DNA of 64,000 nucleotides. Source: Amphiscolops sp. MND2022. Lineage: Eukaryota. The notes below the pieces were generated by a model. The model saw nothing but the letters and a program-made list of their open reading frames with translations. It was not told where the DNA came from and made no database searches. Made by a program: the position numbers and the translations under genes. Shown piece after piece: positions 1 to 37,829 of this stretch (position 1 is its first letter; each line of letters starts with the position of its first letter). The stretch is taken from positions 25,980,001-26,044,000 of the forward strand of contig OZ076409.1 in assembly GCA_964187785.1 (NCBI GenBank), in the 5' to 3' direction.

Positions 1-1169
1 TGTTGAGAGTAACAGATTATATTGACAAAGACAACATTTTTGACGAAGAATATTCTGCGGCTTTTTATGACTCAACATGGTTGACAATTTTTGAACTATC
101 AATTCTTTATTTTTATGATTTGGCACGATTAACAGGAAAAATGACGGAAATTCACGGAGCACACCATGTCAACTTCACGTTCTTTCATGTTCTAAGTGGA
201 GATGTTTTGTACTTCCCGTAACTTTACGCAGATTTTTTTAAACAATTATTGTATGAAACTATAAATAACTGAAGTAGTAACTTTCCGACCACTTCGCCTA
301 GTAGCTATTATGTGATGCCTGGAAGCGGGAGCCGTATCTTCGATTCCCACAGACTGTTTTCATGTTTGCAAAGCTAGATAACAACACAGGGTGAACCCTT
401 TAGATTTGTTTGAGCTCTGCGACTTTTTTTGAATTTTAGAGCAAGAGTCCTCGTTTGTTTTTTTTCTCATTTTCTCGAGGAACAAAAAGTTTCAACTTTT
501 CTGCCTGAAACTGCAAGTTGATGCAGGAAAACGGAAAGCACTTTAGATTTACGTAGCCTACTATGATGATGATAAAAATTTCTTGAAGATTGTTTTTGAG
601 CATATTTGAAAAGTTTTGTATTTATTGAACCTTCGCTGAATAGTGCCGTTCCCACTTGTTTCGAACTTAACTTAATACCAAATTATTAAAGTTTTTCCCG
701 ATTAGGCTTTGACAAAGAGAAGATAGCTGAAATAATTTCCAAATTGTCAGTTTGGAACTCTATTGCATGATTTTTGAAGAGGTATTTTTTTAGTTAGGAC
801 AATTTCTTTGTTCGAGAAGCCACTATTTGCTGGCCATGATTCACATGTATGATGAAATATAAAAGCACAGTTAAAAAATTAAAGATAATTATAAAATAAA
901 ACACAGTTTTATTCTGAAAAAGACTTTCTGAACCAAACGTTTACTTTTTTCATATCGGCAAAGAGAATGAAACCATTGGAAGAGTGGGCAATTTTGTGAA
1001 ATGAGGTATATCCGAGGCAGTAGGATATGAAAAGGGGTTCATCGACATTTCAGGCAGATTTCTATGAAGATTAGAAAACAATCATTCTGCATCAAAAATT
1101 CTAAACAAATTTTCATCTTATCGGTTTGTTATGCTTTCAGAAACGAGAACAGACGTAGGGGCTTGGGAC

Positions 1170-1715
1170 GTGGGCACAAACTACGATCTAAGGAATAAGA
1201 TCGAAACGCACTTCTGTAACTAAGATCTAAAGAACTAAGATCTAAATGTCATTTTTCGTAACTAAGATCTAGAGAATGCCAGCTCCCGAATCGTACCGAA
1301 AGTCTAAATTTCAGACGTTATTCCCGTTTTAATTTCCGTTATTCCCATTTTTTAGATGTTACGGTAAAGTATAAAATGCTTTAAAGTATAAAACGTGCCT
1401 CAGATATGTCCCAATTTCCTCTAGTGCCCTGCGGCCCCTTGGGGCCGCTTATGTTCCCATCTTGCTAAGCGAGGTCGAACAGGAGCAAAGACCTAGCGGG
1501 AACGGAGATCGCGAAGCGATCGTAGTGGGAGCTGGTCTTTGCGACGGTGAGGGCGAGCGTGCATACACCGTATATGACCCCACATTATTCCTTAGACGTT
1601 ATTTTAATTCAATTTAGACCTTAGTTACGGTGCATGCTTTTTAGATCTTAGTTCTTTAGATCTTAGTTACGAAATTTCTTTAGATCTTATTCCTTAGACC
1701 TTAGTTGCGGTCCCC
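1170..1715 (+). mobile_element. Foldback/MULE-like MITE, arm family A (TAAGATCTA repeats), copy 1, carrying the conserved core
   Basis: Imperfect TIRs gtgggcacaaactacgatctaaggaataagatc / gatcttattccttagaccttagttgcggtcccc; 9-bp TSD gcttgggac at 1161-1169 and 1716-1724. Confidence 0.8.
1421..1585 (+). repeat. Conserved ~165-bp GC-rich structured core, candidate ncRNA; other copies at 3535-3698, 4586-4749, 6657-6821, 7762-7925, 8671-8833 and a half copy at 1976
   Basis: Near-identical ctagtgccccgcggccccttggggccgc...gcatatgccccacat set inside different arm families; several stems; upstream TATAAAA. Confidence 0.85.
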
Positions 1716-2390
1716 GCTTGGGACGTGGGCACAAACTACGATCTAAGGAATAAGATCGAAACGCACTTCTGTAACTAAGATCTAAAGAACTAAGATCTAA
1801 ATGTCATTTTTCGTAACTAAGATCTAGAGAATGCCAGCTCCCGAATCGTACCGAAAGTCTAAATTTCAGACGTTATTCCCGTTTTAATTTCCGTTATTCC
1901 CATTTTTTAGATGTTACGGTAAAGTATAAAATGCTTTAAAGTATAAAACGTGCCTCAGATATGTCCCAATTTCCTCTAGTGCCCTGCGGCCCCAAGGGGC
2001 CGCGGGGCACTAGACGAAATGGGGACATATCCGAGGCACGATATATGTAATATATTTTTTTTCCGTAATTTTTCGATCTTATTCCATTCGATCTTATTCC
2101 ATTCGATCTTAGGCGATGAACGATTTCATTCGATCTTATTCCGTTCGATCTTATTCCATTTTCGTATTTTCGATCTTATTCTTTCGATCTTATTCCGTTC
2201 TCCTAGCAGGAATAACGTCTAAGGAACAACGTCTAAGGAATAACGTCTAAAGCCAAGTCATGCTCAGTCATGCTTATTCCCAATCTTAATACATTGGATT
2301 TTAGACGTTATTCCTTTAGACGTTATTCCCGAAACACTTTTAGACGTTATTCTTTAGACGTTATTCGCGCCCCTAAGGGGAGCGGAATAA

Positions 2391-3189
2391 ATGGGCTACA
2401 TCAGGGCTGCCCAAAAATTAATTGATTGAAAATTAATTGCAATTAATTGCTAGAAATTAATTGATTGCTAGAATTTGCAATTAAAATTAATTAATTTTTT
2501 CGTTCCAATTAATTGCAATTAATTGGTGTAATACATGTATTTCATGCATTTGCAACTTGCAAGTGAATCTGCTGCATATTCATTCGGTGATTTCCGTCAA
2601 AGTCTGCTACCAATGAATTTGGAGATGCAACTTTTCCTAAAGATGAATAAAAGATTTTGGGACGAACAAATTCTTGCATCAATTGTTGCTTGAATTCATT
2701 ATTGTGATTAATAGTTTTGTTGTTACTTAATAGAGTAGAGATACAATTAACTGCAATTAATTGCAGTTAATTAATTTTTCAGAAGAGCAATTAAAATTAA
2801 TTGATTTTCATTGTTGAAGTGGCAGCAATTAATTGCAATTAATTTTTGGGCACCCCTGGGCTACATCATGGCCTCTGCCGAAAAGAAAACTGTTATGGAC
2901 CCCAAGATGATGAACACCCCTGTACTTGTGATGAATGCGGAGAAAACTGTGAGAATCCCAATCATTTGGAAGACTGCTCTGGGCTTAATTCATCAGATAC
3001 CCTCAAAAAACTGCGGCTAATCTACGATAAAATAGAACCCAGGAAAATACCAACCGATTAATTTCATTTTAGTTTAAATAGTTTACGCTCAATGCATACT
3101 GTATATTTATGCACGTGCTTTATGTTATTTTATGTTCTTCCTACAAGTTGTCTTTATAAAGACGTGAATTCAATTGTTCTGTTCTGTTC
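2391..3189 (+). mobile_element. 5'-truncated non-LTR retrotransposon 3' end (Cys/His C-terminal domain plus 3' UTR), interrupted by the hAT MITE
   Basis: 15-bp TSD aggggagcggaataa at 2376-2390 and 3190-3204; ORF ...HHGLCRKENCYG...CTCDECGENC...NHLEDC; tail ataaagacgtgaatt..(gttct)n. Confidence 0.72.
2402..2858. mobile_element. hAT-type MITE
   Basis: TIRs cagggctgcccaaaaattaattg / caattaatttttgggcacccctg; perfect 8-bp TSD ggctacat at 2394-2401 and 2859-2866; internal AATTAATTG repeats. Confidence 0.88.
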
Positions 3190-3887
3190 AGGGGAGCGGA
3201 ATAATATGTGGGCACAAACTAGGGGAAACGGAAATCGGACTGAGGAAATTGAACTAATGGAATTAGGACTAACATGCTCAAAATTTCTGAAACGTTCATG
3301 TGAAATAGAACTAATTTCGTATTTTTTCAAACAGGAATTTGATCTAATTTGTTACGGGAATTGGAACTAAAAACAGGAATTAGAACTAATTTGTTACGGA
3401 AATTGGAACTAAAAAAGTGGGAATAAGACCTAAAATGCTGAATGAGACCCAAGGGGAGAACGGAATAGTATCTAAAGAAATAATATCTAAAGTTTTTCAA
3501 AGTATAAAAGGTGCCTTTGAAATTTTCCTTTCCTCTAGTGCCCCGCGGCCCCTTGGGGCCGCTTATGTTCCCATCTTGCTAAGCGAGGTCGAACAGTAGC
3601 AAAGACCTAGCGGGAACGGAGATCGCGAAGCGATCGTAGTGGGAGCTGATCTTTGCGACGGTGAGGGCGAACGTGCATACACAGCATATGCCCCACATTG
3701 AAATTTCGCTTTCAGAAAGTCCACATGTATTGAATTTCCCTTTTTGTTTGTTTTGATGGTCCAGTAAATATGTCCTTCGCATTTTAGACCTTAGTTACGG
3801 TGCATTCTTTTTAGATCTTAGTTCTTTAGATCTTAGTTACGAAAATTCTTTAGATCTTATTCCTTAGACCTTAGTTTCGGTCCCCGC

Positions 3888-4230
3888 TTGGGACACCATG
3901 GTTTATGTCAGAGGAAAGGATGTTATGGGGCAAACAGAGACGAGGAGATATGTATATGTGAGCTGTGTAGTCAAAACTGTGGGGATGACAACCATTTAGA
4001 GGAATGCCCAAGCTTAAATGACACAGATTTCTTCAAAAAACTGCGCTATGTTTACGCAAGAACATTATCTATATGACAGTTTACTTTATTTCTTTTTCAA
4101 TACTGTACTTTTTCATTATTGCACGTGTTATATTTTAAATACTTTCTCACCACTTGAAGTACCCAACATTTGTACACTTTATCTTTCAGTTGTCTTATGA
4201 ATAAGACGTGAATTTATCTTATCCTATCCT
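3888..4230 (+). mobile_element. Second 5'-truncated non-LTR retrotransposon 3' end; its first 7 nt lie at 1163-1169
   Basis: 15-bp TSD aacagacgtaggggc at 1148-1162 and 4231-4245; ORF GHHGLCQRKGCYG...CICELCSQNC...NHLEECP; tail ataagacgtgaatt..(atcct)n. Confidence 0.72.
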
Positions 4231-4238
4231 AACAGACG

Positions 4239-5186
4239 TAGGGGCGGGAATAACGTCTAAGGATTAACGTCTAAAGGAATAACGTCTAAATTTTACTCAT
4301 TTTTCGGGAATAACGTCTAAAGATTTAGACGTTATTCCCATTTTTTTAGATGTTATTCCCGATTTTGAAATATTGTTTCTTGTGCTGAAAAGTTCTTCCC
4401 TTGGTCTAGTTTTCAGGTAATAACGTACAAAATCCAGAAAAAACGCCCAAAATATCCGAAAGTCATCGAAATACGACTGAGAAACAGGAAAAACAAATTA
4501 AATTGGAAAAAATAAATCGTTTCAGATCTAAAATTAAAAAGTGATATATAATATAAAACGTGCTTCGGATATGTCCCCATTCCTTCTAGTGCCCCGCGGC
4601 CCCTTGGGGCCGCTTATGTTCCCATCTTGCTAAGCGAGGTCGAACAGGAGTAAAGACCTAGCGGGAACGGAGATCGCGAAGCGATCGTAGTGGGAGCTGG
4701 TCTTTGCGACGGTGAGGGCGAGCGTGCATACACCGCATATGCCCCACATTTTGATTTTTCGCTTTCAGAAAGCCTTTTTCGAAACAGGAATAACGTATAG
4801 AACTTTAGACGCTAGTCTCAAAAAATGATTTATTTTAGACGTTATTCCCGTTTTATATTTAGATGTTATTCCCCAGACGTTCTTCCCGCTGCCACGTATT
4901 TTGATGATTTTTTTGCTATTTTAGACGTTTTTGCCAATCTTAGACGTTATTACCGTTTTCAAACGTATTTTGATCGTTTTTTGACATTTTAGGCGTATGT
5001 CGTTTTTAGACGTTATTCCTCTTTTTAGACGTTATTCCGCTTTTTAGACGTTATTCCACTTTTTAGACGTTATTCCCGTTTTTTTAGACGTTATTCCCGT
5101 TCATTTCAGATTTAGATGTTATTCCTTTAGACGTTATTCCCGGTGGACTTTTAGACGTTATTCCTTAGACGTTATTCCTGTTCCCC
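4239..5186 (+). mobile_element. Foldback/MULE-like MITE, arm family B (TAGACGTTATTCC repeats), copy 1, carrying the core
   Basis: Left arm (GGAATAACGTCTAA)n, right arm (TTAGACGTTATTCC)n; 9-bp TSD gaacagacg at 1147-1155 and 5187-5195. Confidence 0.8.
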
Positions 5187-5209
5187 GAACAGACGTAGGG
5201 GCGGGAATA

Positions 5210-7286
5210 GGGGAAACGGACCCATATCAAACATACCTGTCCATATCAAACTGATCGATATGTCCAAAGCATTTGACAATGTATGTCGAACCTCGCTCAA
5301 AGAAATGTGCAAATGTATTATGGATGACACCAGTTTCACTCTCTTAGAGCTCCTACTCGACCGCATTGATGTAAAAGTGCGAGTTGGAAACCATCACAGC
5401 AAAATTTTTACGACGAATAAAGGCGTGCCTCAAGGGGATGCTCTCAGTCCCATACTGTTCATTTTATACCTGTCGAACACACTAGCAGGAGTCTTCATAG
5501 CCCCAGAAGAGCGAGATCATGACTACGGAAACCCAGGGATTCGGTTCTCAGATGACCCCTCTTTGTCAGTGATCACTCTCCAATATGCTGATGATATCGC
5601 ATATATCGACCGAGACCTTGAAAAACTAAACCAAAAAATGTATAAGGACTCAAAAAATCTTGCACGAGCTGGCTTGACCGTTAATCACAGCAAAACAGAA
5701 GTTAGAACCTTCGTTTCAGGGCAACTGAGACCTCCCAACCTCAAATATTTAGGCTCCCACATCGACACAGACGAAGACATCACGAATCGACAGCGATTAA
5801 CATGGGCTGCAATGGCAAAATTGAGACAAATACGAAAAAATGCAGACATACCAACGCTGGAGACAATTTGGAAATCGCTATTAGAACCTATTTTTCTCTA
5901 TAACAGCGAATTATGGTCACTGACCAAAACCAGAGAGAAAAAAGTCGATGTCATGCAACGAAAGTTCATTAGAATACTCCTGTCAATAAAGCTGATAGAC
6001 AAAATCAAGAATGAGGAATTGTACAGACGATTAAATACAGAGCCATGGTCGTCAGCCATCCAAAAACGACGGCTGAGATTCTTTGGGCACATAACTAGAC
6101 TCTCATCTGAAACCCCAGTTCGAAGATGTCTCCACCAAACATCAACCAGATGGGGCAAATCAAAGGGAGCAGCCCGACTGACATGGAAGAAACTTATTAC
6201 AACCGATTTGGCGCCATATGATATCAACCCAGATGACCAGACAACATGGGAGTCGCTGAGGAAGAGAAATGTAAACTTCTGATCTGATTGAATGAACAAT
6301 GCCCTCGGGCGTATATGTTAATTAGATGATGATGATGATGAGGGGAAACGGAAATCGGACTAAAGAAATTGAACTAATGGAATTAGGACTAACATGCTCA
6401 AAATTTCTGAAACCTTCATGTGAAATAGAACTAATTTCGTATTTTCTCAAACAGGAATTAGAACTAATTTGTTACGGGAATTGGAACTAAAACAGGAATT
6501 AGAACTAATTTGTTACGGGAATTGGAACTAAAAAAAGTGGGAATAAGACCTAAAATGCGGAATGAGACCCAAGGGGAGAACGGAATAGTATCTAAAGGAA
6601 TAATATCTAAAATTTTTCAAAGTATAAAACGTGCCTCTGATATTTCCTCATTTCCTCTAGTGCCCCGCGGCCCCTTGGGGCCGCTTATGTTACCATCTTG
6701 CTAAGCGAGGTCGAACAGGAGCAAAGACCTAGCGGGAACGGAGATCGCGAAGCGATCGTAGTGGGAGCTGGTCTTCGCGACGGTGAGGGCGAGCGTGCAT
6801 ACACCGAATATGCCCCCACATTAGAAGGGGAAAGTACTGAAAATTTTGTGAGTCATTTACGAAACATAAAATTTTATTCTTCAATAAAATGATTTGAGAT
6901 CTGACTATTTTATAAAATCAATGGAAGGAGAAAAATAATGATTGTATCAATTTTTTATTGATCAATTGTATTACGTTACTTTTGTACTACTTTCATTGTA
7001 CTACCACAAAATTTGAATTTTGTACCATGTTTTTATCCGCTTCTGCGTTTTTTTTGTTGTACCTTTTTTTATGTTGGATGTTTACAATTGAACATGTCGT
7101 GATTTTGTCAATTCGATCTACGTAATTGCAAATTTTCCGTGCCAAAAGTTGTTTTAGTCCTATTTCAATCAGTCCTATTTCCATTAGTTCTAAGGCGGCA
7201 CTAAAAAAGAATTAGTCCTATTTCCATTAGTCCTATTTCAGTTGTGATTATTAGTCCTCCTTCATTAGTCCGAATTCCTGTCTCCC
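5210..7286 (+). mobile_element. Foldback/MULE-like MITE, arm family C (GAACTAA/GGACTAA repeats), carrying the core and interrupted by an RTE LINE
   Basis: TIRs ggggaaacggaaatcggactaa / ttagtccgaattcctgtctccc; 9-bp TSD gcgggaata (5201-5209) / gcggtaata (7287-7295). Confidence 0.8.
5221..6340 (+). mobile_element. 5'-truncated RTE-clade LINE; RT C-terminal half with an open 340-aa frame at 5260-6282
   Basis: DMSKAFD, GVPQGDALSPILF, QYADD, KYLGS, RRLRFFGHITR; (GAT)n tail; TSD aggggaaacgga at 5209-5220 and 6341-6352. Confidence 0.9.
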
Positions 7287-8399
7287 GCGGTAATAACGTC
7301 TAAGGAATAACGTCTAAAGGAATAACGTCTAAATTTTACTCATTTTTCAGGAATAACGTCTAAAGATTTAGACGTTATTCCCGTTTTTTTAGATGTTATT
7401 CCCGATTTTGAAATATTGTTTCTCGTGCTGAAAAGCTCTTCCCTTGCTCTAGTTTTCAGGAATGAACTATGTAACAATCGAAAGCCACGGAATACGAGCA
7501 AAAGTCTATGTGTCTGATGGGTATTTGTACCTAAATCGACAAACAGGCCAAAATATTTAAAAAAAACTATGTAAAAACGTCCGAAAAAAAGGAATAACGT
7601 ATAAAATCCAGAAAAAACGCCCAAAATATCCGAAAGTCATCGAAATACGACTGAGAAACGGGAAAAACAAATTAAATTGGGAAAAAAAGAAATCGTTTAA
7701 GATCTAAAACTAGAAAGTGATATTAAATATAAAACGTGCCTCGGATTTGTCCCCATTCCTTCTAGTGCCCCGCGGCCCCTTGGGGCCGCTTATGTTCCCA
7801 TCTTGCTAAGCGAGGTCGAACAGGAGCAAAGACCTAGCGGGAACGGAGATCGCGAAGCGATCGTAGTGGGAGCTGGTCTTTGCGACGGTGAGGGCGAGCG
7901 TGCATACACCGCATATGCCCCACATTTTGATATTTTCGCTTTCAGAAAGCCTTTTTCGAAACAGGAATAACGTCTAAAACTTTAGACGCTAGTCTCAAAA
8001 AATGATTTATTTTAGACGTTATTCCCGTTTTGTATTTAGATGTTATTCCACAGACGTTCTTCCCGCTGCCACGTATTTTGATGATTTTTTGACATTTTAG
8101 ACGTTTTTGCCAATTTTAGACGTTATTCCCGTTTTTCAGACGTATTTTGATCGTTTTTTGACATTTTAAACGTGTGTCAGTTTTAGACGTTATTCCTCTT
8201 TTTAGACGTTATTCCGCTTTTTAGACGTTATTCCACTTTTTAGACGTTATTCCCGTTTTTTTAGACGTTATTCCCGTTCATTTCAGATTTAGATGTTATT
8301 CCTTTAGACGTTATTCCCGGTGGACTTTTAGACGTTATTCCTTAGACGTTATTCCTGCTCCCCGAACAGACGATGGGAACGGAATGGGAGAGGGGAATG

Positions 8400-9140
8400 G
8401 CGAAACGGAAATCGGACTAAAGAAATAGAACTAATAGAATTAGGACTAACATGCTCAAAATTTCTGAAACGTTCATGTGAAATAGAACTAATTTCGTATA
8501 TTCTCAAACAGGAATTAGAACTAATTTGTTACGGGAATTGGAACTAAAAAAGTGGGAATAAGACCTAAAATGCGGAATGAGACCCAAGGGAGAACGGACT
8601 AGTATCTGAAGGAATAATATCTAATGTTTTTCAAGGTATAAAACGTGCCTCTGATATTTCCCCATTTCCTTTAGTGCCCCTTGGGGCCGCTTATGTTCTC
8701 ATCTTGGTAAGCGAGGTCGAACAGGAGCAAAGACATAGCAGGAACGAAGATCGCGAATGAGATAGCGATCGTAGTGGGAGCTTGTCTTTGCGACGGTGAG
8801 GGCGAGCGTGCATACACCATATATGCTTCACAATAGGTGGGGAAAGTACTGAAAAATTTTGTAAGACCTTTACGAAAGTTTTATTTTCTTCTCAAATAAA
8901 ATGATTTGGGCTCTGACGATTTTATAAATTATAGAAATCAATAATTGAGAAGTTTGTAATTGAATGTTTATTTGTGTGGATTACCTCAATTCCATCAGCT
9001 TGAGATTTGTTTCTGAAGATTTGGTAATAAATTCTGGCTTCTAACGTTCCCTGGAAAACGATTTTTTAGGTCTTGTTCAACTAGTTTTTGATTTTAGGTC
9101 TTATTCCTTTTGAAACTTTAGGTCTTATTCCCGGTTACCG
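8400..9140 (+). mobile_element. Diverged family-C left arm, core, and a different right arm (TAGGTCTTATTCC repeats)
   Basis: Homologous to 6343-6920 on the left and centre; right end differs; boundaries approximate. Confidence 0.65.
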
Positions 9141-9421
9141 GACGATGCGAGCTGGAAGGGAGAACGTTGTAAAATATAATTCCCAGAATCTAATTCATTA
9201 AGATTTTAAAAAATAACACTCAACGCTCAAAAAAGGACGTAGATCTTAGGAATTAGATAAGATCTAAATAATAATATCTAAAACTGGGGAGTAGGAAAAA
9301 CGTCTGAAGGAGTAACGTCTAAAATTCAATGTAAAAAGATTGGGAATAAGCATGATTGAGCCTTGGCTTTAGACGTTATTCCTGCTCCATCTGTCATGCT
9401 TATTCTCCAATCCTAATACAT

Positions 9422-9568
9422 CTTGTTACTGGTCTACTGGTATAGTGGCTGGTATGGGGTTCCCTACTTTCGTTGCAGACCACGGGTGTGTGTCTTCTCC
9501 CCCCAAAATGATGATACACATGGCACTTGATTGATGACGAAGATCCATGATATCTGATAGAGGAAAAA
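9422..9568 (+). mobile_element. Short A-tailed retroposed insertion in a family-B mini element
   Basis: TSD aatacat at 9415-9421 and 9569-9575; the empty site taatacattggatt is seen at ~2288. Confidence 0.6.
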
Positions 9569-9792
9569 AATACATTGGATTTTAGACGTTATTCCCGAAA
9601 CACTTAAAGACGTTATTCCTTAGACGTTATTCGCTCCCTAAAAATTTTTGACTTCGAAAAGGGGAATAAGATCCAAAATTGACTTTAAAAAAGATCCAAA
9701 CTTGCAAAATTGAAAAAAAAACATGATCAGTTCTCAAAATCTATATTAATTAAAGTTCAGTTGAGTGTGATTTCAAGAATTAGACGTCATTC

Positions 9793-21300: not shown

Positions 21301-24300
21301 AAGATGTTTTGCACTGGGTAAGCAGGATTATATTAGTTTTTATTTTGCCACATGTTATCGTTATTACAGTGTATGACGTTGAAAATTTACCACACGACAT
21401 CCAAATTTGTTTCCCAAGATCGGCGTCTTTCATAATACCGCGTGTTTTCACGATTCCAATGGGCTAACTCCTGAAATTAGACAAATCGAAATTAACAATA
21501 GAGACTTTCAAGGTTAGCATATGCTATTATCAGGCTTTACTAAAAATGTAGGAAAAAATGAAAATGCTGCCTCGCATAGCCACCAAGGTCCTTGAAGCAC
21601 TAGCGACGGTACGGTGGTAGCCTTTCGTATAACCGAACGAGCTTAAGGAAAAATGAATATAAAGCCGATCCCAAATCCTATTGGACAAGGAAATAAGCAA
21701 ACTATCACCTTAATTTTCAATTACTCTGACCGGTTACATAATAGGGTGCCCTTGTAAGTTCGCCATATATAAGTTAGCCCGTAAAACTTAGCCACGTTCA
21801 AGTTAGCCACCATATAAGTTCGCCACGTTTATTTTCTCTATATTTAAGCCAATGGAAATTGAATGCGAACTGAAGTGGCTAACTTAAATGTGACTAAGTT
21901 TTACGGGCTAACGTATATGCGGCAAACTTAAATGGACACGACATAATAGTTTTATCATTCAAAGCTCACTGTCGAACGGAGTGACCAATTACAATTGAAA
22001 ACTCGATTTGGTTCCGCTATGAATTTATTCTGCATTATTACCATTCGGATATAGAACCACCTGGTCTATGGAGGTATTACTAAACTTGAATTTCAAATGG
22101 TAATTTTTGACTGTTGTTTTGCAAATTATCAACGTTCGTTAAGTTACTGTCCTTGTACAAAAAGGTTGTATTCGAAAAGTTTTCTTCATAATTTAAAAAA
22201 AATGACGATAATCTATAAAATAAAAATCAAAAGTTTTCCCGATATTTCTAATGGGGTGTAAGACGCATTCGTATGTTTGATGGAATTTGGCTCCTAGCTG
22301 AAAATACACCGATGTGATTCGGAGAATTATGGGAGGTAATAATATTTTAGAATATTGGAATATTTTATTGATTTAGGGTGCGGTTTAGAATATTTTTGCA
22401 TTTTTAATTGATCTGATTATGTCTCAATAAGCACATTTATGCAACTAAAGCAGTTAACATTTACATCATTAAACCATATTATCTGCCTAAGTAAAAAAAG
22501 CAATGCAGTCATTATCAGTCGTTCAAATTTCTCCCTTCGTTTTTTCTACAGATGATACCGTTAATTCATTAAAAGTTTTGAAATCTGTGTATCAATTTGT
22601 GGTTCTCTTTACTGATTTATCGACATGAAACTTGATGTTTTCGAAACATGAAATGAAATTCTTCGAGCCGTTCATCAAAAGTGAATGGAACTTATAACAG
22701 TTTATAATTTAATAACCATGTAGTTTTTATAAAATGTTTACAGGCATGGAATTTTTCACCGTGACGTGAAGCCAGAAAACATTCTGGTGAAAGGCGACCT
22801 GTTGAAACTGGCAGATTTCGGCTCATGCAGATCGCGAGAATCCAAACAACCTTTCACAGAATACATATCCACTAGATGGTTCGTAAATTTTTAACACCAA
22901 ACTTTAACAAGTTGGAAACAAAAGTCTTTTGATATGGTCAAAACTAACTTTTTCGACACCCACTGCTGTGAAAAGATAAATTCCAGCTGTTTATGAGAGT
23001 TTATAGTCAGTTCAATTTCTATATGTTAACCCCAATGAACCTAGTGATGCTTTAAAGCAGCCTACCTTTTTTTCCAAATTCTAATTCCTTTTGCCAGTAG
23101 CCCATTTTCTCTAGCACAGTTTTTTTTCAACAAGTAATTGGTACCTAGATTGATTTGAATGGCACAAGCATTAGAAAAAGGGAATCCATCTCCAAAGCTG
23201 AGAAAAATGGGTTTTTGGCACAAAAAAAGAGTTATATTTTCTCAAAATTCAGATTTTGACGAAATCCGGTTTTCTCAAAAGTCTTTGATCAATAGAAAAA
23301 ACCAACCACATACCCTTCCACAACAAGTCCTGGTGCAACAAACCCCTATAATATTCTGTTGTTACTACAAGCCCCCGCGCAGCGGGCCGCACGAAGTGCG
23401 GAACTGCCGCGAAGCGGCGGTACCGGAAAAAGAAGCTAAAATTCTGGAGAAAGGGGCGCGCGGCGACAGGAGCTCACCTGAGCAAAATGAAAGCCCAATA
23501 CCAGACCTTTCAAACGCGCTATAGTTTGTTTCTCTGGTGCGCGTAGTTGTGGAGATATTAATTTTTTAAAATTTTTATTCAAATTTTTTGAAAATTTTAA
23601 AAAACGCCCAGGTCGATTGGGGTTAAATTGTTCAAATTTTACAATTACCATATTAGATGGAATTCTATTTGGATTTAAATGGTAATTACCATTTGAAAAC
23701 AGCTTGAAAATATCGCACTGAGAATTTGCGTCTCATTTACCAATGATTGAAGAAGTTTGTGAAATTTGAATTTTTTCTTCGAAAATTTGAGAAAATTAAA
23801 GTTTTTGTGATATGAAGACCACAATTACGGTAACACTGGCTTTTCAGGTACCGTGCTCCAGAATGTTTACTCACAGACGGGTATTATGACTACAAAATGG
23901 ACGTTTGGTCTGTCGGATGTGTCTATTTCGAAATATCAACGTTAGCTATCAATCAATTATGACTCATTCATTTTTGATGTCTTGAATAATGATTTCTTTC
24001 ATGTATGTACTTCCTTTATAGACTGAAACCTCTATTCCCTGGTCAGAACGAAATTGATCAGATCGATAAAATCCACAAACTGTTCGGAACTCCGCCCTCA
24101 GAAGTCTTATCCAAGTTCAAGAGGTCTCGATCCATGAGCTTCAACTTCCCGCCTAGCGTGAGGGACGAACGTACCCTGACCCACCTGGTCGAACCCATGC
24201 CCTCAGACGGGGTTGACCTGCTCTACAAGATGCTGGAGTATGACCCCGCCAAAAGAATCACCATGGAGGAATGTTTACAACACCTGTACTTGAAAAACTT

Positions 24301-27300
24301 GAGGTTAGGGAAGAAACGTTTATTCGACTGGATACTAAAATACCATTTCAGGGACTTAAGGGCGATGACTTCAAGGGCCATTTTGCTCATTCCTCGTCTG
24401 TTTTGGATGTTCACTGATGGTAATAAATAAAGCCTAGTGTATTTTTTATATAATGTAACGTTTATGACATCCAAAAAAATAACTTTTTCATCATGCTTTA
24501 TAAAAGAAAAACTAAATGTTCCAGTCAGGAGAGAGGATGAGCTAAGTTAGTTCATTCAATGTTCCGTATTTCGGTATTTCCGTTTTTCGTATTTTTTGTC
24601 ATTCTGGGACATGCTATAACAGTGAGATCAATACGTTTCTGTTGATTCATTTTGGTAAAGTACACTCTCCATGCGACGTTCTGCGGCATTGTGAGACCAA
24701 AAATTGTATCGAGAACGTGTATTTTCTGTCATTTCTATCTCTGAATGTTGACTGACGTTTTAGTGAACAACTCAGATCTCAGAGAGAAGCTAAGCGGCAG
24801 CAACAAGCAGCAGCCTCTGCGAACATGGGCGGAGACAACGAGAAGACGATATCTAACTCCCCCGACAAAATGGGGCTGCAAAATTCATCGGCTGCCTCTG
24901 GCGAAAAGAAAGATAGTCATCGAAACAGTGTCGCACAAATTAAAGTAAGTTTGACCCTCTAACTTTTCTTCCAGTTGCTTTTTGCCCCAAAACTGTTCAA
25001 AACTCTCGTTGCAACTTTGTGCGACTAACATTCTTGGACGCTGTTGGAACCGCTGTTAAAAAGAAGTTGGCTTCTACGAAAAGCTTTCTTGGTTAGGTAA
25101 CTCTCTTTCTTCAGTTTTCCCCGAAATATTTTTCAATGCAAGTGTTGCGTTATAGTCTTTATTCCCCCGTGGGTCTTTCAACGAGATCTACCGCAATTCG
25201 TCCCTTGTTGTAAGTATTTCACTGTTACACTCCACCTTTGTTATCGAAAAACACATTGCCCCATCTTGCCAAATTCAGCAACAAAGTGGATGTTTTTTTT
25301 AAATTAGCTGGTACCAGTCAAAATATTAACGAGACAACCTCATGCACATTGATATATCAGTCTGATTTAACTATCGATTTGTTGATTTTGACTATCGGCC
25401 AATCAAAAGAATGGTTCTATTGACTAGTTTATTCGATTATTCGACTAGTTCACACGAAATGAATTATACATTTCTATCAATGCGTGCTTTTAATTGAAAG
25501 TTTTTTTCGCAATGCCAGAAGTTATAAAAACGAAGCATTCTCAAATAGAATCTGGGCCAAATGTTTCGCCTGACTAAAAAACATTAACACTATGAGGCTA
25601 CAAAAAAGCTTGCTCATGGATATTTTTTTTTCAGGATTGCTTTCTTCGGTAATTTTTCAGGATGATTTTCAGCGCAAAGCATCATTTTATTTCGGCCAAC
25701 TGAATTGAAAAGTTTGCAGAATATGCTGAATTTTCAAAAAAAAGTTTCGCACTGCTGGCAAAAATGAATTTTCGATCTCGCATAGATAATGTATAGCATG
25801 TGTCCAAGAATTGTAGCAATTACGCGACTGCTCTTATAAAATACTTGGAAAGATTTTGAACCAAGAACTCATCTATCTAGCGACCCTGAAAACAGCATCG
25901 GTACTGTAACCTTACTAAAGTGCACGCAGAGCAATCAAGTCACTGAGCAATCAGAATACCAGCAAAGGCACTCAATTGTTGCCTTTTAGGAACAATTAAT
26001 GTGCCATCTACAAATTTTTCCCGCCTGAATTTTTGTAGAGGAAACAGAGTCGCTTTTCATGGATTTCTCACCCTCTTGTCAATAAGTTGGTGTGTTTTGA
26101 AATGGCTTTAATTTTTTTGGAGTTTGTTGCAAATTTGGCAAAATGGCTGCAGAATGTTTATACACACACTTACCACATAGAACATGGTAGTCATCTCCAA
26201 ATAACCACAAGCAGCTTTAGAATGAATGTATCCATGTGTGTTTGTGCTTGTGCTTGTTCAGTCACTTACCAACTTGAAATACGGCACATTTCCCAGCTGC
26301 CTATCTATTCAACGTCTTTGTTGTCATTCATACCAAAAAGGTACTATTTTTGGACTTGCATGAACAGAAATACGTTTTCGCTTCGCCTTGGACATTAATA
26401 CGTTTTTGCTTCGCTTTCTACACTTCAAGTAACCTGCCTCAAGATTTGCGAAATCTTTTAGGGTTATAATATTCAAATAGAAAATACATATAGAAAATAT
26501 GTATTTGTTTTCTATTTTTATTTCTGCTTTAGCAGGAATATTATTGAAATCCCAAACCGTCTACTTTTTTTGTTCAGTACAATTCTTGTCGTGATACTGA
26601 ATAATTCAGATATTTTGTTCGGCAGTGCTGTAAGCGTGGGAATTAAATTTCTCAAGCTGCCGACGACATTTCAATTCTAGTGCGATGGACCTAGCGAGTG
26701 GTAATTATCCATTCGTATGCTGACGTCATTGAGATGAAGCGAGCGAATGTTCGTAATCGTGCTTTCGTTGCCCCGAGTTATTGAGATGAAGCGAATGAGA
26801 GTTAATTATTCGTTCGCGGAGAGCTTCGCCTGCATTCAAATGCGAATGCGAAACTTCGTCTACGCTTAGTAGTTATATTTGCTTTAGTCTGAGATTTAAA
26901 GGCGGTGTAAACTTGTACAGTGATTAATTGTGCGCTAAATAATGATTAAACAGGAGTGTATTGGTATTCTAGATATGATTCTTTTATTAATGAAAGATTA
27001 AAGCAGAAATAGTACTGAGCCCCGGAGGGGCCTATTTTAAATATACGATCTCTAAGGTTTAGGCACAATTGAACATGCCAGCTACAAACATTAAGATGTA
27101 GTCCCTAATATTTTTTCCAGGAAGGAAAATTCATCCAAATGAATGGTATGAAATAGAGACATCAGATTTATTTCAAAATTTTGAAACATTCAATTTGGAC
27201 ACGAGATGAGCCCTCGTGCGAAGTTAACCAGTTTTTCGAGTCCAATGAGGGCTACTTATATGAAATTTTATGAGAAAAACTGTACAACTTAGTGGGAACT

Positions 27301-31859: not shown

Positions 31860-34800
31860 TGTTCCGCCTATGGGGAAAACGTCTTGGGGAAGAAGCTGCA
31901 GGTATTTGTCAAAAGTCTTTTTTGTTTTCAAATCTGAACAATATTTGGGTTGCTACACAATTCCGATTTTCTATTTACCGCGATTAATGAATCATTGAAA
32001 AGTTAACTAACCACACTGCAACAAGTAAAAATCCTTCCAAAATGGCAATCAAATCAATAGTTTCATTGGTTGTTCATGACTTTTTGATGTATGAGTTGAT
32101 TCAATCAAATCATGAGTCATCTGAATGACACACTCCCGCCACTTCGTCTGATTGAGCAAATTCCTGTGGACAGTTTGACAGTTTAATTATCTCATCAACT
32201 TCAACGTATCAAGATTAATGTTTTCCAGTTAATCATTGTTCGTCTTTAGCAAGAATCAACACAAATTTTTGGATTGGCCTGGACAAACAAGTCTTAACTC
32301 CATTCTTTGCGACAATTTCAACTTCAACATCTCTCACTAATCCATCTCGTCCAGGATATACTTCTCGAATCCTTCCTAACTTCCATCATCCTCTTATTGT
32401 ATTTTGATCTTCCACTAACACTACATCATCCTTTTCAAAGTTCCTGTGAGTATCACGCCATTTTTTGTAGAAACACATCTGTGGCAGAAAATTTCTTTGC
32501 CATTTCTTCCAAAAGCTGTCCAAAACATTTTCGACTAGGTTCTGACGGGTCAAATTACATCCATTGTTTGTTGGAAACGGCACAGTTTGGTTTTGAGTAC
32601 GGCCGAGTAGCAGAGAATTGGGAGACAAGTAGAACCCATCATCAGGGTGAGTCGGATGTCTTCCAATGGGTCGATCATTCAGCAGGTTTGCTACCTCGAA
32701 CAAAGTTGTTTGCATTTCCATCAACGATAGGACTTGATTTCCAATAGCAAAAAACAAGCAATTTTTTACTGAGCTGATTAGCGACTCAGCGCAAGCTTGT
32801 CGCCATGGAGCACAGCCGGGTGCAAATTCCCACCGCAATCCTTTAAAGTTGAATTCTTTAATGAGGAAATCATCTTTCATAATCTTGAAGCTGCCTTGAA
32901 AAGCTTTGTTGGCCCCAACTAGTTGAGTACCTGAGTCAGAATGAATGACTTCAGGAAATCCGCGAAGTGAAACAAATCTCCTGAAGGTTTGCAGAAACTC
33001 CTTTGTCGAGTAATCCATTACTATATCCAAATGTGCTGCTCGAGAAAAAAGGCAAGTGAAAATGGCCGCATAAATTCTATAATGCGAAGTCTTTTTCAAA
33101 TTGCTCCTCACGTTGTATGGTCCCAACAATGGATTTACCCGCTCCTCAGTTGCAGAACCCATAAGTTGCGCAGCTTTCTTTGTTGTAAAGTCTACATCCA
33201 GTGCAAAACTTTAAAACAGATTTAATATTTCTTAGCAGGTTCGGTGACCAAAGTTTCGTACGAACTTTGCTTGCAGTCGCTAAAACTCCTAGGTGACCAG
33301 GTTGGTGTGCTTCTTTTATTGCCAGCTTCACCAATTTCGATGACTTTGGTAATAATGGCACAACTTCACTGATCCTCCGGCCAGCCATAATCAGCCTTTT
33401 CTCGTTTTTAAAAGCACCTAAACGTTCAAATTTTCCGCTTTCAAAACTTTGTTGAAGTTCTTTCTGCTCGTGTTTGACTATGAAATTCCATGCTTCTTCA
33501 ATTTCTCCTAGTGTCAGCATTTGAGCTAAGACTTTCAATGATCTTCGCGTTTTCAGCAATAAAATCCTTGCAATGGTTCTGATCAAAGAGTCTAAGGACT
33601 TAAATCTATCAACTTCGTAGTCGATTATTTCGCTGTGTTTTTCTTGAATTGAAAATGTCTTGCTTTTAAACACATCAAGTAAATCGCTCATAGAGTATTG
33701 CTTTTCTTGTAGTGGCCAATGCTGTTCTTCTAGCTGTAAAAAGGATGGACCGGATTGCCATTTCGACCCCAATTTAAGTTCAGCTGGTGAAGACCCTCTT
33801 GAAATGAGATCAGCTATGTTCAAGTCACCAGGTACCCAGAAGAAGTCTTTCGGGTTCTCTGTTTCTTGCATTTCACCCAAACGATGTCCTGTAAAAATAT
33901 TGAAACCGTAAGATTCCTTTTGGGTCATTGCTCGTACAATTGCTGAATCTACTAAAAACTTTACACTGTCGAAGTTCAATCGAGAATGTTCGAAGAGAAA
34001 ACTTTTGATCCTGACTGCCAATAACAGCCCGCGAAGTTCCAATCGGACATTGGAAATTTGACGTTTGAGAGCTAATCTGCTTTTAGCTAAAATTAAATTC
34101 GATACATGAGCTCCGTCCTCCACTTCCCACACAGCATAAGCACACGCACCAAAAGCTTCTTTTGATGCATCGCTAAAGACAACTAACTGAGGATTTCCCA
34201 CCGCATTTTTTGGTTTGATACAACGAGGGAAAGAGACATCTCTCATTTCAAAAAGCTCTCCAAAAATTGTAATCCATTCGGCAAGCAGCGACGGAGGAAG
34301 GCTTTGGTCCCATTCATCCGCCCTGTTGGCCTCCCAAGTTCTTCTCATAAGAACTTTTGCTTTAACTGTGAGGGGAGTTGCTAGTCCCAAAGGGTCGAAA
34401 ATCGAATTTAGTTGGCTAAGAGCTTGACGTCTTGTGAGACTCGCTGGGGGATCAGCTCTCAAATCGTTCAACTTTGTGTACTGCTTAGTAGAAACTTTTG
34501 TTTTTATAACTACTTTAGACTTAAACTCAAAAACATCTTTTTCCAAACACCAAGTCAATCCGAGTACTTTTTCGCTTTCTTCTGTATTAGCAAGGCAAAC
34601 TTCGGTTGTTTTCCCTCCTGAAAAAATCTAATTTTTTAATTTTGAAAGAACCAGCGGCAAGTATCGTCTCCAGATTAGTAGTGCGAGTTTTAGCAATATT
34701 CAAAGTTTCGACGCTATCAATTATGTCATCCGTACATGTAGACGTCTGTATAACTAATTTTTCTTCTTTATAGTCATCAGAAGCAAGTTCCGCTGTTCTC

Positions 34801-37800
34801 CTCGAAGCTAGGTGAGCAATTGTTGCTGCAGGTTCGGTCTCCAAAAGAAACCACTTGCATCATGTATTCGTCCGGTTCGTCCTTTAGACGATAATCTCGC
34901 CATAGGAATCTGTGGGTGTGCTGGTCTTCCAATGCCATTCGAATAGTGTGATACATCTTTCGAATATCACCAATGTAAGCCACATGGTTTTCACGGAACT
35001 TTACTAAGATACCCAATAAGTTTCCGAGAAGGTCTGGACCTTTCGCCCAATAGTCGTTCAGGACGTGGTTTTTGTAATTAGCAGATGCATTAAAAACAAT
35101 TCTGCAAGGCGTGGAAGCAGAATCCTGCTTCAGTACCTCATTGTGACTAATGTAATGCACCGGACCATTGTAATTCAAGTCTTCCGCATCCAATTTTTTT
35201 AGCAACACCGCGATCCAACATCTCTTGTATTTGACTTTGATAAGTTTCAGCTTGTTTCTCGTCTTTCAAAAGTCTCTTCTCTGTGTTTTGTAACTTGTGT
35301 GTGTTTTGTAGGATCTCTCGCAGTCCATACTTTATTTTCTAAAGATAATCCGTTATGAATTAGTTCCAATTCTCTTTTATCTTTGATGGAAAATTCTGAA
35401 GCTCCTAGTCCGCACTGACCGCATTTGCAATTACCACATTTTGGACTACATGAAATTCCAAGGTTTTCAATCTTGTAGAAGTCATCAACTGTAATTTTGG
35501 ATTGATTAAAATTGACTGTAGTAGACTGGATTGAGTTTGCTGTTGGATCTGTTCCCTTTACAAACTTTCCGAATGCATTTTCAAACAAGACAAAATTTCC
35601 ACAACATTTTACTGGTACAGGGTGATACTGTACAACGTTCAAACCCAAAAGTAGTGAAATAAATCCCCTTTTGTCCTGCTGATTCTGAAACTCCGTAGGA
35701 AAAATTGTTCGATGAGGTTCTGTACTGTATTCCTCAGTCGATATTTGATCAACACCATACGATTCAACGGGAACGAGATTGTCGTCTTGATCTCTTATAC
35801 TGAACATGAACAGTTTGTTTGCTTTCTTTTTGTTTGGCCGAGTGTTTCCATCACAATAGAAACAGCTTTGCCTGGAACTTCCAAGGTGTTTGCGACTGAG
35901 TTAAAAATTAAAGACACTGTAGAAGCTGAGTCCCAAAGAGAAAGAATATTCTTAGACTGGGTAGGAGTGATAATCTCTATTGACATGATTTGCAACAAAC
36001 ACGTTTCCCCTGCTATATTACACTTCGCAGAGAAACTGTTAGTCTGTTGGGTTGCTCTTTGAAAATGACTATCATGCAAGAGAGTGTGATGGTTCCTCCC
36101 GCATTCCTTTTGCTGGCATTGCTTCCTGCTTTTATATGTTCGCGATGTGTGCCCAATATTGAGACAATTAAAACACGCTCTTCTTTCTTTTACTAGATCC
36201 GATCGCTCGCGAACAGATTTGTCCATGAATAATCTGCATTCATCTGTCCGATGTTCTGATCCAGGATGCAAAAAACATTTCGGATTAGCTGGCATTGTCC
36301 ACTATCTCTTACCAGGTTCAGTCGAACATTAGCCTTTACTTCTTCTTTATTTCGTTTCAACAAATTCAAGTCATATTCAACTACCATTTTCCTCTCTAAC
36401 AAAAATTTTAGAAAACCGGGAAACTTATCGCCTTTGTCAATTGCACTATCTTTCTCGTAAATTCTTTCCATCCATTTTTTTCTCAAGTCGTCAGGCAATT
36501 TTTCTTCAATTCTTGAAATAATTGTACTGTTTTTAATTTCAGCCTCCCGCCAAGGATATTTCAATTCCATACTTGCTTTCTCTATGATGTCAATAAAAGC
36601 CAGGAGACGTCTTTCTTCGTTTTCTTTTATCGGTCGGAAATGTTTAATATCATTGAGAACAATTTCTACAATCTTGCCTTCATCGCCATACCTCTCATCT
36701 AACCGTGTCCACATTTCTTTGATATGAGACAGTTGACTCATCCACGATGACAGAAGAAACTTGTTTTTCGAAGTCTTTTTTGAACTGTGGCCAATCTCTA
36801 CAGTTACCACTAAACTTGGGAAATTTCATTTTTTCCATGTGCGTTAGCACTCGTTTTGCATCTACTGCATCTCCCCCATCGCACTCACTTTGGCACGTAA
36901 GAGAGTTCGACGCTTGGTAGAAGATAACATCAAATTTGTTAAAGATTTTTGTAAAAACATTTGAGTCCAATTCTTCTAGTTCACCCGAATCTTTCATTTC
37001 CGAAAAAGCCTCGAATAGCTCCGTAACTTCTTTAAATTGTCTTTGAAAGTCGCCTTTTACTGCTTTCAAAGTTTTATCGTTCGGCGCTGAAATGTTTTCG
37101 AAAGGTTGGCAAATGTTACTGAGTCTATTCAGTTCGATATTGTATCTGTCGTTCAATTTTCGACATCTTTCTCTAAGCTCATTCCTTTTCAAATCTTCCT
37201 CCTTTTCGGCAACTCTTTTAGCATTTTTTTTCAAAATTGGTTTTTTCTAAAGACATTGTCTTTTCCTTTAAAATCTTTTCGAATTGGCATTTTTTCGATC
37301 TTAATTCATGGAATTTGGATTCAGGTTCGTCTATCCACAAAATTTCAGCTTCATATGTATCCTCATTAACTGTTAACATGTAACGTTCATGTGCACTTTG
37401 GACATTGAACCATGTTTTTGACACATCTTGGAACATCTCTTGGTGCTCTTCAAAATCGGGATCAAAAGTTAACAAGAAGTTCTCATACCTTGTACATGCT
37501 TTATTGAAATTTCTGAGAGATAACGCCCTTGCTCTTTTTTCCATGATGCTGTGATTTGAATGTTCCGCCTATGGGGAAAACGTCTTGGGGAAGAGGCTGC
37601 AGGTATTCGTCAAAAGTCTTTTTATTTCAAATCTGAACAATATTTGGGTTGTTACACAATTCTGATTCTCTATTTACCGCGATTAATGAATCATTGAAAA
37701 GTTAACTGACCACACTGCAACAAGTAAAAATCCTTCCAAAATGGCAATCAAATCAATAGTTTCATTGGTTGTTCATGACTTTTTGATGTATGTGTTGATT

Positions 37801-37829
37801 CAATCAAATTATGAGTCATCTGAATGACA
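31860..37829 (-). mobile_element. BEL/Pao LTR retrotransposon, full-length but frameshifted
   Basis: ~270-bp TG..CA LTRs at 31860-32130 and 37561-37829; PPT ggcgggagtg; gag (KFPKFSG, CFNCLNIGH), protease (LWDSASTVS), RT (CRIVFNAS, GPDLL, GDIRKMYH), Pao RNase H (VFSDASKEAFG), integrase (HSDSGTQLVGA). Confidence 0.93.

Follow-up and report, generated by a model that had tools for sequence, protein, structure and literature searches.

Polar stacks of foldback MITEs and LINEs beside a short flank motif in the genome of Amphiscolops sp. MND2022

Nested transposable elements in Amphiscolops sp. MND2022 stand in polar stacks beside a short sequence motif. We analysed a 64,000-nucleotide stretch (contig OZ076409.1, positions 25,980,001 to 26,044,000, forward strand; hereafter the window) together with related loci of the genome. 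The motif is linked to the stacks, orientation is one-sided, the insertion distances form peaks, MITEs and LINEs use the same site, and the elements are ordered by age. Our preferred explanation, to which we give a probability of about 0.7, is that each stack grows at a landing site set by the motif 50-95 bp upstream, and that a putative host protein likely binds this motif and opens the adjacent phased DNA.

A preliminary description had reconstructed the nest in the window from target-site duplications (TSDs). All of the TSDs it named were found, one of them with a mismatch, and the nest is real (Table 1). The sequence gaacagacg lies at 1147, 5187 and 8364, aacagacgtaggggc at 1148 and 4231 and also at 5188, gcttgggac at 1161, 1716 and 3886, and aggggaaacgga at 5209 and 6341 and also at 3221. 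A and B are each arranged as a dimer of the form TSD-X-TSD-X-TSD. C starts 14 bp inside B2, as described, with its TSD reading gcgggaata at 5201 and gcggtaata, one mismatch, at 7287. The RTE-type LINE had been placed 11 bp into C; its TSD does span the first 11 bp of C, but begins 1 bp outside it. A C arm (at 3222) does follow the initial 14 bp of an A-type terminus at 3208-3222, but this event occurred elsewhere, because 1725-3885 is a composite imported from another nest. Positions 2390-3885 match a locus on chromosome C7 (L289) at 1478 of 1496 bases, and within the composite, element F has been hit by element E at a right-type terminus (2205). Measured from the start of the motif regular expression at 1095, the B end stands at +61 and the A end at +75; a first B at +61 and later elements at +75 account for the 14-bp offset noted earlier. 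About 35 bp past the window motif, a second box reads TATG in place of CATG.

An assembly artefact or chance clustering is hardly credible as the origin of such nests. Some stacks adjoin N gaps (L036, L293), but a separate TSD marks every junction, and a divergence of about 5% and a deletion set B1 apart from B2. The layout is repeated at no fewer than 40 further loci, and a sister copy of part of the nest stands on C7.

Table 1. Features of the nested cluster (window coordinates)
Feature	Position	Strand	Remarks
Flank motif CAAAAATTCTAA, stack anchor	1093..1104	+	PWM 16.6, maximum 18.1
B dimer TSD, 9 bp	1147..1155	+	further copies 5187-5195, 8364-8372
LINE1 TSD, left copy, 15 bp, spanning first 7 bp of B1	1148..1162	+	start 53 bp from motif
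A1, foldback MITE, 546 bp, youngest and frontmost	1170..1715	+	TSD gcttgggac 1161/1716; 100% identity to other copies
Imported composite, A left end and A-like right end	1725..3885	+	TSD 1716/3886
E left arm, inverted, joined to A at core hairpin; inserted in F right-type terminus	1995..2204	-	
F, inverted short MITE lacking the core; right-type end broken	2205..2375	-	intact F copies elsewhere start GGGGAGCAGG
LINE2 fragment	2376..3204	+	15-bp TSD 2376/3190 = first 15 bp of element G
MITE D, inside LINE2 fragment	2402-2858		CAGGG ends, 8-bp TSD
H: 14 bp A-type end, C left arm, shared core, A-like right arm	3208..3885	+	own 9-bp TSD at L289
LINE1, 5'-truncated non-LTR fragment, (TATCC)n-like tail	3888..4230	+	
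B1 body, short B subfamily	4239..5186	+	99.8% to nearest copy
B2, older B copy, interrupted by C2 after 14 bp	5196..8363	+	96% to nearest copy
C2	5210..7286	+	TSD 5201/7287, one mismatch
RTE-type LINE fragment, (GAT)n tail, RT frame	5221..6340	+	Pfam RVT_1; 12-bp TSD 5209/6341
Short FLYWCH-like reading frame in B2	7462-7548		
Older distal stack part: short terminal stubs, C3, decayed arms	8373..9640	+	
C3	8399 to ~8930		89% to nearest copy

Both ends and a TSD were present in 77 of the 120 focal copies, and the TSD was 9 bp long in 70 of the 74 unique ones. A, B, C and E have the 8-10 bp TSDs of Phantom/foldback MULE non-autonomous elements, and also the long TIRs with 14-15 bp subterminal repeats in both arms and the asymmetric tips that mark MULEs. 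The B peptide resembled the start of a FLYWCH+MULE reading frame at L092 (37% over 27 aa; E 8e-5 in a small set) and a sequence at L448 (50% over 22 aa), while the 29-aa peptide itself found no match in Pfam. No MULE with A, B, C or E terminal repeats appeared among the 50 loci (30 + 20) examined of 150 matches. A Phantom-type MULE transposase probably mobilises the MITEs. MITE D is presumably hAT-like, judged by its ends and TSD length.

The flank motif, CAAAAATTC[GT][AT], is often accompanied by CATG about 35 bp downstream. Genome-wide, it was found 40-110 bp upstream of 40/50 stacked sites versus 16/51 solo sites (p 1e-6), and in mirrored form at 2 of 109 sites; the 145 rows of this comparison were first cleared of 18 duplicates and of 18 copies whose stack start was not intact. 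At held-out loci the motif was present at 7/7 stacked versus 2/16 solo sites (p 1.5e-4). In the discovery set, a forward-strand motif lay 30-90 bp upstream at 30/57 sites and a mirrored one at 0/57 (background 0.7%), figures that are not independent because the motif was selected from the same 57 sites, which remained of 74 after leaving out 7 LTR-site repeats and 10 arm-flanked sites. The held-out set gave 9/27 (a tenth at 104 bp), with 2/27 mirrored and a background of about 1.2%. CATG occurred at +30 to +44 in 29/48 sites versus 9/145 background matches, and the box was present in 5/5 LINE sites checked.

The motif is neither necessary nor sufficient for insertion. Its regular expression was missing in 10 of the 50 stacks, three of which had a weaker PWM match and some of which were fronted by another insert or mis-called. 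All 9 held-out B copies and about two-thirds of the solo copies lacked it. When motif matches were sampled irrespective of insertions, 1 in 48 (about 2%) was occupied.

Several other anchors were considered. CATGCT alone was ruled out as a side marker, having the same frequency on both flanks. Targeting of tRNA genes was rejected, as aragorn detected no tRNA gene in the window or at L001-L211. Eight loci scanned against Rfam gave only weak miRNA-like matches below the cut-off. Targeting of snRNA promoters (PSE) was likewise rejected, the motif being upstream of 0/6 U2 and 0/13 U6 loci examined.

The Mutator/foldback-type MITEs were inserted 60-95 bp downstream of the motif with a phase of about 10.5 bp. 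Over 56 sites the distances peaked at 64-66, 74-77, 86-87 and 94-96 bp, and the 10.5-bp periodicity was significant against a smooth envelope (R 0.57, p 2e-4); in the 16 solo sites alone it was not (p 0.096). Such phasing may reflect a single helical face or a neighbouring nucleosome. The TSD consensus was weak, with G at positions 1 and 5 (G as first base in 34/70). Judged from sequence, landing would be determined mainly by a signal 50-90 bp away rather than by the TSD sequence, which shows little consensus.

The same site is used by LINEs. Two unrelated lineages were inserted mostly 53-63 bp from the motif, at MITE-free sites as well; the reverse transcriptase of the second is 28-32% identical to that of the first, the RTE-type lineage. 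The second lineage and LINE1 were found at 53-58 bp at L060, L189, L208, L211, L420, L421 and in the window. Relatives of the LINE at 5221-6340 encode about 1000 aa with APE and RT domains, and the fragment itself matches RVT_1; its RTE label follows the wording of the preliminary description and its short-repeat tail, which we take to be a family trait. Of 28 RTE-type matches overall, 12 were at least 93% identical and retained the 3' end. Nine of these lay either at a site with the motif or in a stack fronted by it, one probably did, and two adjoin assembly gaps. Several LINE1/LINE2-type copies had no motif (L063, L199, L210 and a tandem cluster on C5). Automatic LINE TSD calls were often false owing to tail repeats and subrepeats, and only TSDs checked by eye entered the counts. 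LINEs with sequence-specific targeting of the Tx1L type cut a target repeat at a single conserved sequence. This type of targeting was ruled out here, because the TSD sequence varies between sites at a constant motif distance.

A, B, C and the LINEs face the motif with their left or 5' end, and E, F and J are inverted. The inverted families were broken at their right-type ends (L135, L016, L152, L151, L161). Two held-out copies had the wrong orientation (L348, L352). Young A/E copies stood in front in 79 versus 5 pairs, and a young A/E copy came first in 26 of 29 stacks (11.9 expected), with age read from identity to individual reference copies, of which a few themselves lie in the stacks. A CATGCTC box is present on the motif-facing end of C, E, F and J, and not of A or B; it is a lead for what sets orientation.

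The preliminary description had regarded the left terminus as a strongly preferred target and had proposed self-targeting by the transposase or a persistently open end. Genome-wide mapping bore out the excess for A, B and C: another element's end broke the left terminus within 25 bp in 7/104 scored copies and the right terminus in 0/93. Copies were chosen by inner sequence for this comparison, and the other flagged rows were, by eye, repeat-number variants or unrelated neighbours. Right-type ends are broken too where they face the motif, and the left ends as such are mostly not the cause. That a transposase sitting on the left end captures incoming elements, or keeps the end nicked, is improbable and in our rating largely refuted. 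The excess itself would agree with it, as would the repeated TSDs at positions 4-12 of B and 4-12 of A, and a B located 4-12 bp inside another B at L029 without any motif. But stacks occur almost exclusively where the flank motif is present, LINEs insert at equal distance where there is no MITE, the left ends of E were broken in 0/42 copies, C and E share an identical 13-bp right end yet face opposite ways, and young elements are rarely found in the rear left ends displaced from the motif. Across about 179 kb of the elements, internal insertions numbered at least 7 by script and roughly 20-30 by eye. There may be a minor residual preference for self-targeting or for G-rich local sequence.

Under our preferred explanation, a putative host protein on the motif would open the neighbouring phased DNA, and a new element would insert at a fixed motif distance in the orientation set by its family. 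Since the insertion leaves the motif intact, the next cut would fall at an equal distance, within a few bases of the preceding element's near end, on one side of it or the other. Older elements would be displaced outward, and an age-ordered stack would grow. A recurrent break hot spot, meiotic or derived from excision, with elements captured in repair, might also provide one window for unrelated enzymes, and the terminal stubs and small duplications in the stacks resemble excision footprints. This is very unlikely: MITEs have normal TSDs of 9 bp and LINEs of 11-15 bp, a sign that the elements' own enzymes were at work, and breaks would not predict a fixed orientation.

The motif also resides in the 5' part of abundant LTRs. 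A two-part pattern had 3025 genome matches versus 139 for a reversed control, and lay 69-77 bp into paired LTRs of 750-790 bp in the sense direction. Together with the CATG box, the motif may be a TATA-less promoter-like element. A role as a general gene promoter was not supported: the two-part motif was upstream and in sense in 1/52 Ras-family first coding exons, where 5' introns may hide it, and the plain motif within 500 bp of these genes was sense in 8 cases and antisense in 7. By analogy, the motif could instead bind a Sap1-like protein and act as a polar barrier to replication forks, with stalled forks providing the cut sites and the orientation. We consider this unlikely. It would suit the one-sided orientation, the lack of a general association with gene starts and the motif in LTRs, comparable to the Sap1 sites in Tf1/2 LTRs in the cited passages (PMC5371812). 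However, the fixed sense position in the 5' LTR part and the spaced second box suit a promoter at least equally, and the occupancy of about 2% needs explaining under both models. A wider reading, which we hold to be doubtful, sees the motif as a promoter-like element of the host and a universal, polar trap that would draw active DNA transposons and LINEs into a single phased window. Newest elements would be filed first behind the transcription start, as at a CRISPR leader; the host would gain dated records and possibly silencing RNAs, and LTR retrotransposons would spread the trap by carrying the motif.

In its operation, motif-directed stacking would resemble the targeting of tRNA genes or Sap1 sites. 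According to the passages cited, Ty1, Ty3, DGLT-A, TRE5 and TRE3 target tRNA (Pol III) genes, TRE5 LINEs insert about 50 bp from the target, and Ty1 inserts periodically in nucleosomal DNA (PMC5006619, PMC5911963). There, as here, unrelated elements lie at a fixed distance from a host cis-element; here DNA transposons take part too, anchoring is by a short motif with CATG, the stacks are long and age-ordered, and no tRNA gene was detected at the loci scanned. Sap1-directed integration of Tf1 in fission yeast is described as an orientation-dependent hot spot at a host binding site also found in LTRs, and the same review suggests that such a hot spot could account for nested clusters (PMC5371812). 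That case concerns one LTR retrotransposon and a known factor, whereas ours involves MULE-type MITEs, two LINE lineages and a putative factor. P-element and jockey dimers, like those of A and B, have tandem copies with a single TSD between them; as far as the cited text goes, the preference there is for the TSD itself, whereas here the TSD consensus is weak and the determinant lies 50-90 bp off (PMC5932611). MITE multimers of rice and maize likewise show nesting well above chance through self-insertion; compared with the cited passages, polarity, a flank motif and sharing with LINEs are given only for the present system (PMC5172404, citing Jiang and Wessler 2001). The Phantom/foldback MULEs Tm1 and Muta1 share the 9-bp TSD, a FLYWCH-like remnant, and asymmetric outer motifs after which come GGA and subrepeats of 14-15 bp; unlike for the present MITEs, the cited passages report no target sequence preference, and Muta1 may favour genic regions (PMC3169594, PMC5225508). 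In the literature searched, mainly open-access articles, we found no description of a motif-anchored stack common to MULEs and LINEs.

Position-specific integration is known mainly from yeasts and amoebae, in each case with a single retrotransposon and a single host factor. Here, in an animal genome, one short motif would determine where, on which strand and in which helical phase both cut-and-paste transposons and two LINE lineages insert. This makes a standing question testable, namely what causes a hot spot and how a DNA transposon gains its orientation. Where terminal repeats in nested clusters seem to target themselves, a flank signal may be the cause, and such cases should be read with caution; the stacks provide a relative chronology of transposon activity.

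The nest in the window is a cluster of foldback MITEs with 14-15 bp subrepeats, target-site duplications (TSDs) 9 bp long and a core of about 200 bp in common, and three LINE fragments are interspersed among them. The TSDs named in the preliminary description were all found where it placed them, the C TSD with one mismatch. It overlooked that A and B are each a dimer with a single TSD between the units, that a second LINE is present, and that one segment came in from another nest as a composite. This segment matches L289, a locus on contig C7 (1478 of 1496 bases identical), at which these pieces can be resolved, each with TSDs of its own. Compared with L289, it is a composite transposon with the left end of one element and the right end of another, which moved a nest piece, with a LINE within, to a new site.

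Features of the window, the MITE families and related genomic loci
Feature	Coordinates	Strand	Size or remark
Flank motif	window 1093-1104		
Foldback MITE A			546 bp
Foldback MITE B			about 1070 bp
Foldback MITE C			about 960 bp
Foldback MITE E			about 750 bp
Imported composite	window 1725-3885		
Second LINE	window 2391-3189		
Core copies	window 1372-1587, 3488-3699, 4531-4750, 6608-6823, 7707-7926, 8623-8825		about 200 bp
Head-to-head fusion	window 1986-2046		
Terminal stubs	window 8373-8398		10-20 bp
Protein-kinase exon	window 23993-24430	+	
Two decayed LTR retrotransposons	window 32386-39692; 41610-45337	-; -	BEL/Pao-like and Gypsy-like by eye
LINE2-type 3' ends, tandem cluster (L416)	C5:30481000-30490999		period about 3.1 kb
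U2 tandem array	C4:81044275-81083745		46 copies listed
Convergent pairs of U6 genes	C3:315168-319044		
MULE transposase frames, tandem array	C10:485821-504262		about 3.5 kb apart

The MITEs show Phantom/foldback MULE features, as described in PMC3169594 and PMC5225508. B retains a FLYWCH-like peptide similar to the start of FLYWCH+MULE frames in the same genome, and no exact autonomous partner was found among the 50 of 150 MULE hits examined. The core is 93-99% conserved and common to MITE families with very different arms; it occurs in many further contexts (68 left and 81 right variants) and close to 11 of 21 MULE loci. An Rfam search with it gave no match. Its GC hairpin adjoins CTAG, an arrangement which we take to resemble a Helitron 3' end. 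In the window and at L117, L135, L361 and L062, two inverted elements are fused head-to-head exactly at this palindromic hairpin, in at least 4 distinct forms, which likely arose by deletion between two hairpins within a stack. Short terminal stubs of several families lie between stacked elements in the window and at L005, L114 and L290, and some of them resemble excision footprints.

The insertion excess at left ends, which the preliminary description noticed in the window, proved to be general. The window belongs to contig C1 of a 1.07 Gb genome, in which searching with inner sequence yielded at least 182-699 candidates per family. Among copies picked in this way, 7 of 104 scored A, B and C left ends were broken within 25 bp by another element, versus 0 of 93 right ends. 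No E terminus was broken (0/37 left, 0/32 right). When all loci were pooled, including those fetched for being nests, reading by eye found about 22 broken ends among 197 left ends and none among 179 right ends. Insertions internal to elements were sparse (7 in about 179 kb by script, a lower bound).

Target sites were oriented by family, with A, B and C forward and E inverted, as the nests show. The motif [CG]AAAA[AT]TTC[GT][AT] was found on one strand 30-90 bp upstream of 30 of 57 sites, versus 0/57 on the mirrored side and 0.7% of background windows. Since it was selected from these same sites, the motif was fixed and 27 additional loci were then tested with it: 9 had it upstream, a tenth carried it at 104 bp, and 2 had it on the mirrored side; the held-out B copies, all solo, had it in 0/9. 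Motif presence tracked nesting. Among sites outside LTRs (109 of 145 copies used), 40/50 stacked versus 16/51 solo sites carried it (p 1e-6), and at held-out loci 7/7 versus 2/16. At 29 of 48 sites a CATG box followed 30-44 bp past the motif; among background hits this held for 9 of 145. A CATGCTC-like box also lies 50-70 bp inside the motif-facing end of four of the six families compared (C_L, E_R, J, F) and is absent from A and B.

The two-part pattern of motif and CATG box had 3025 genome matches, versus 139 for a reversed control. Most of the 100 listed matches fall in one repeat, an LTR of 750-790 bp that occurs as pairs on the same strand; of three reading frames scanned in elements with this LTR, one matches a protease family of gag type. 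The motif stands in sense direction, 69-77 bp into the LTR, and variants in other repeats retain both boxes. This position suggests a promoter-like role. Within this LTR lie 8 of 74 MITE target sites, and in a larger set seven LTR sites are 60-87 bp from the motif. Only 1 of 48 motif matches chosen regardless of insertions was occupied; the motif alone therefore does not suffice. It was not found upstream of the 6 U2 and 13 U6 loci examined, a tRNA scan of loci L001-L211 and the window gave no hit, and among 52 Ras-family genes only 1 had both boxes upstream. At L024, the LTR 5' end holds a second, reversed motif-like sequence, and one B copy is inserted on that side, at the very start of the LTR. 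A Rho-family gene has a five-element stack (L357/L266, contig C2) beginning about 490 bp upstream and pointing away from it.

Distances from the motif to the first element end peaked at 64-66, 74-77, 86-87 and 94-96 bp (n=56 sites), with phasing at 10.5 bp (R 0.57; p 2e-4 versus a smooth envelope); in the 16 solo sites alone it was not significant. In the window, B ends lie at +61 and A ends at +75; copy C2 would likewise have lain at +75 while B2 was the front element. LINEs also occupy motif sites. Among 28 RTE-type matches, 12 copies at least 93% identical kept the 3' end: the motif is 61-65 bp ahead of the TSD in 5, 4 are inside motif-fronted stacks, 1 is probable and 2 adjoin gaps. Diverged relatives are mostly without motif. 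LINE1/LINE2-type elements are a separate lineage (LINE2-type RT 28-32% identical to RTE-type), and seven copies lie 53-58 bp from the motif, all with the 5' end facing it and five without a MITE (L189, L208, L211, L420, L421). Copies at L063, L199, L210 and in the C5 tandem cluster have no motif.

Other cases for comparison include P-element hot spots within the ends of P elements themselves, IS911 end-targeting, and Tx1L. If left ends were the determinant, as the preliminary description proposed, insertions should strike any of the left ends in a stack; the age order says otherwise. Young A/E copies stood ahead of older elements in 79 pairs and behind in 5, and were foremost in 26 of the 29 mixed stacks, where 11.9 would be expected (permutation p 5e-5). 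When both members of a pair came from one family, the copy in front was nearer the reference in 14 cases versus 3, age being measured against single-copy references, a few of them inside stacks. Consistently, the frontmost copies in the window are most identical to their nearest relatives (A1 100%, B1 99.8%, B2 96%, C2 97%, C3 89%). Inverse-facing families were struck at right-type ends when these ends faced the motif (L135, L016, L152, L151, L161); the window shows the same for F. The left-end excess holds, but the left end as its main determinant is not supported. Against a pure flank model, at L029 a B copy sits 4-12 bp within another B without motif, and the TSDs show a preference for G at positions 1 and 5; thus G-rich tips may fine-tune the cut position.

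Most likely, a putative host protein on the motif would expose a phased stretch 50-95 bp downstream, in which MULE transposases and LINE endonucleases would each make their own normal cuts, as the normal TSD lengths suggest. The motif would outlive each insertion, so the next element would land equally far from it: into the same TSD, giving dimers, slightly outside the near end of its predecessor, or a few bases within that end. Fixed orientation would require an asymmetric cue, e.g. transcription, the direction of a fork or one end being tethered.

MITE multimers are already known (PMC5172404), and the dimers match double insertion as described in PMC5932611. The stacks work like tRNA-gene targeting (PMC5006619, PMC5911963), but with no tRNA found at the loci scanned, and, by analogy, like Sap1-directed Tf1 insertion (PMC5371812). 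A literature search, with most subscription papers outside its scope, gave no account of a motif-anchored, multi-class, age-ordered stack. In conclusion, the feature is real, and we regard it as a previously undescribed variant of host-directed position-specific integration.
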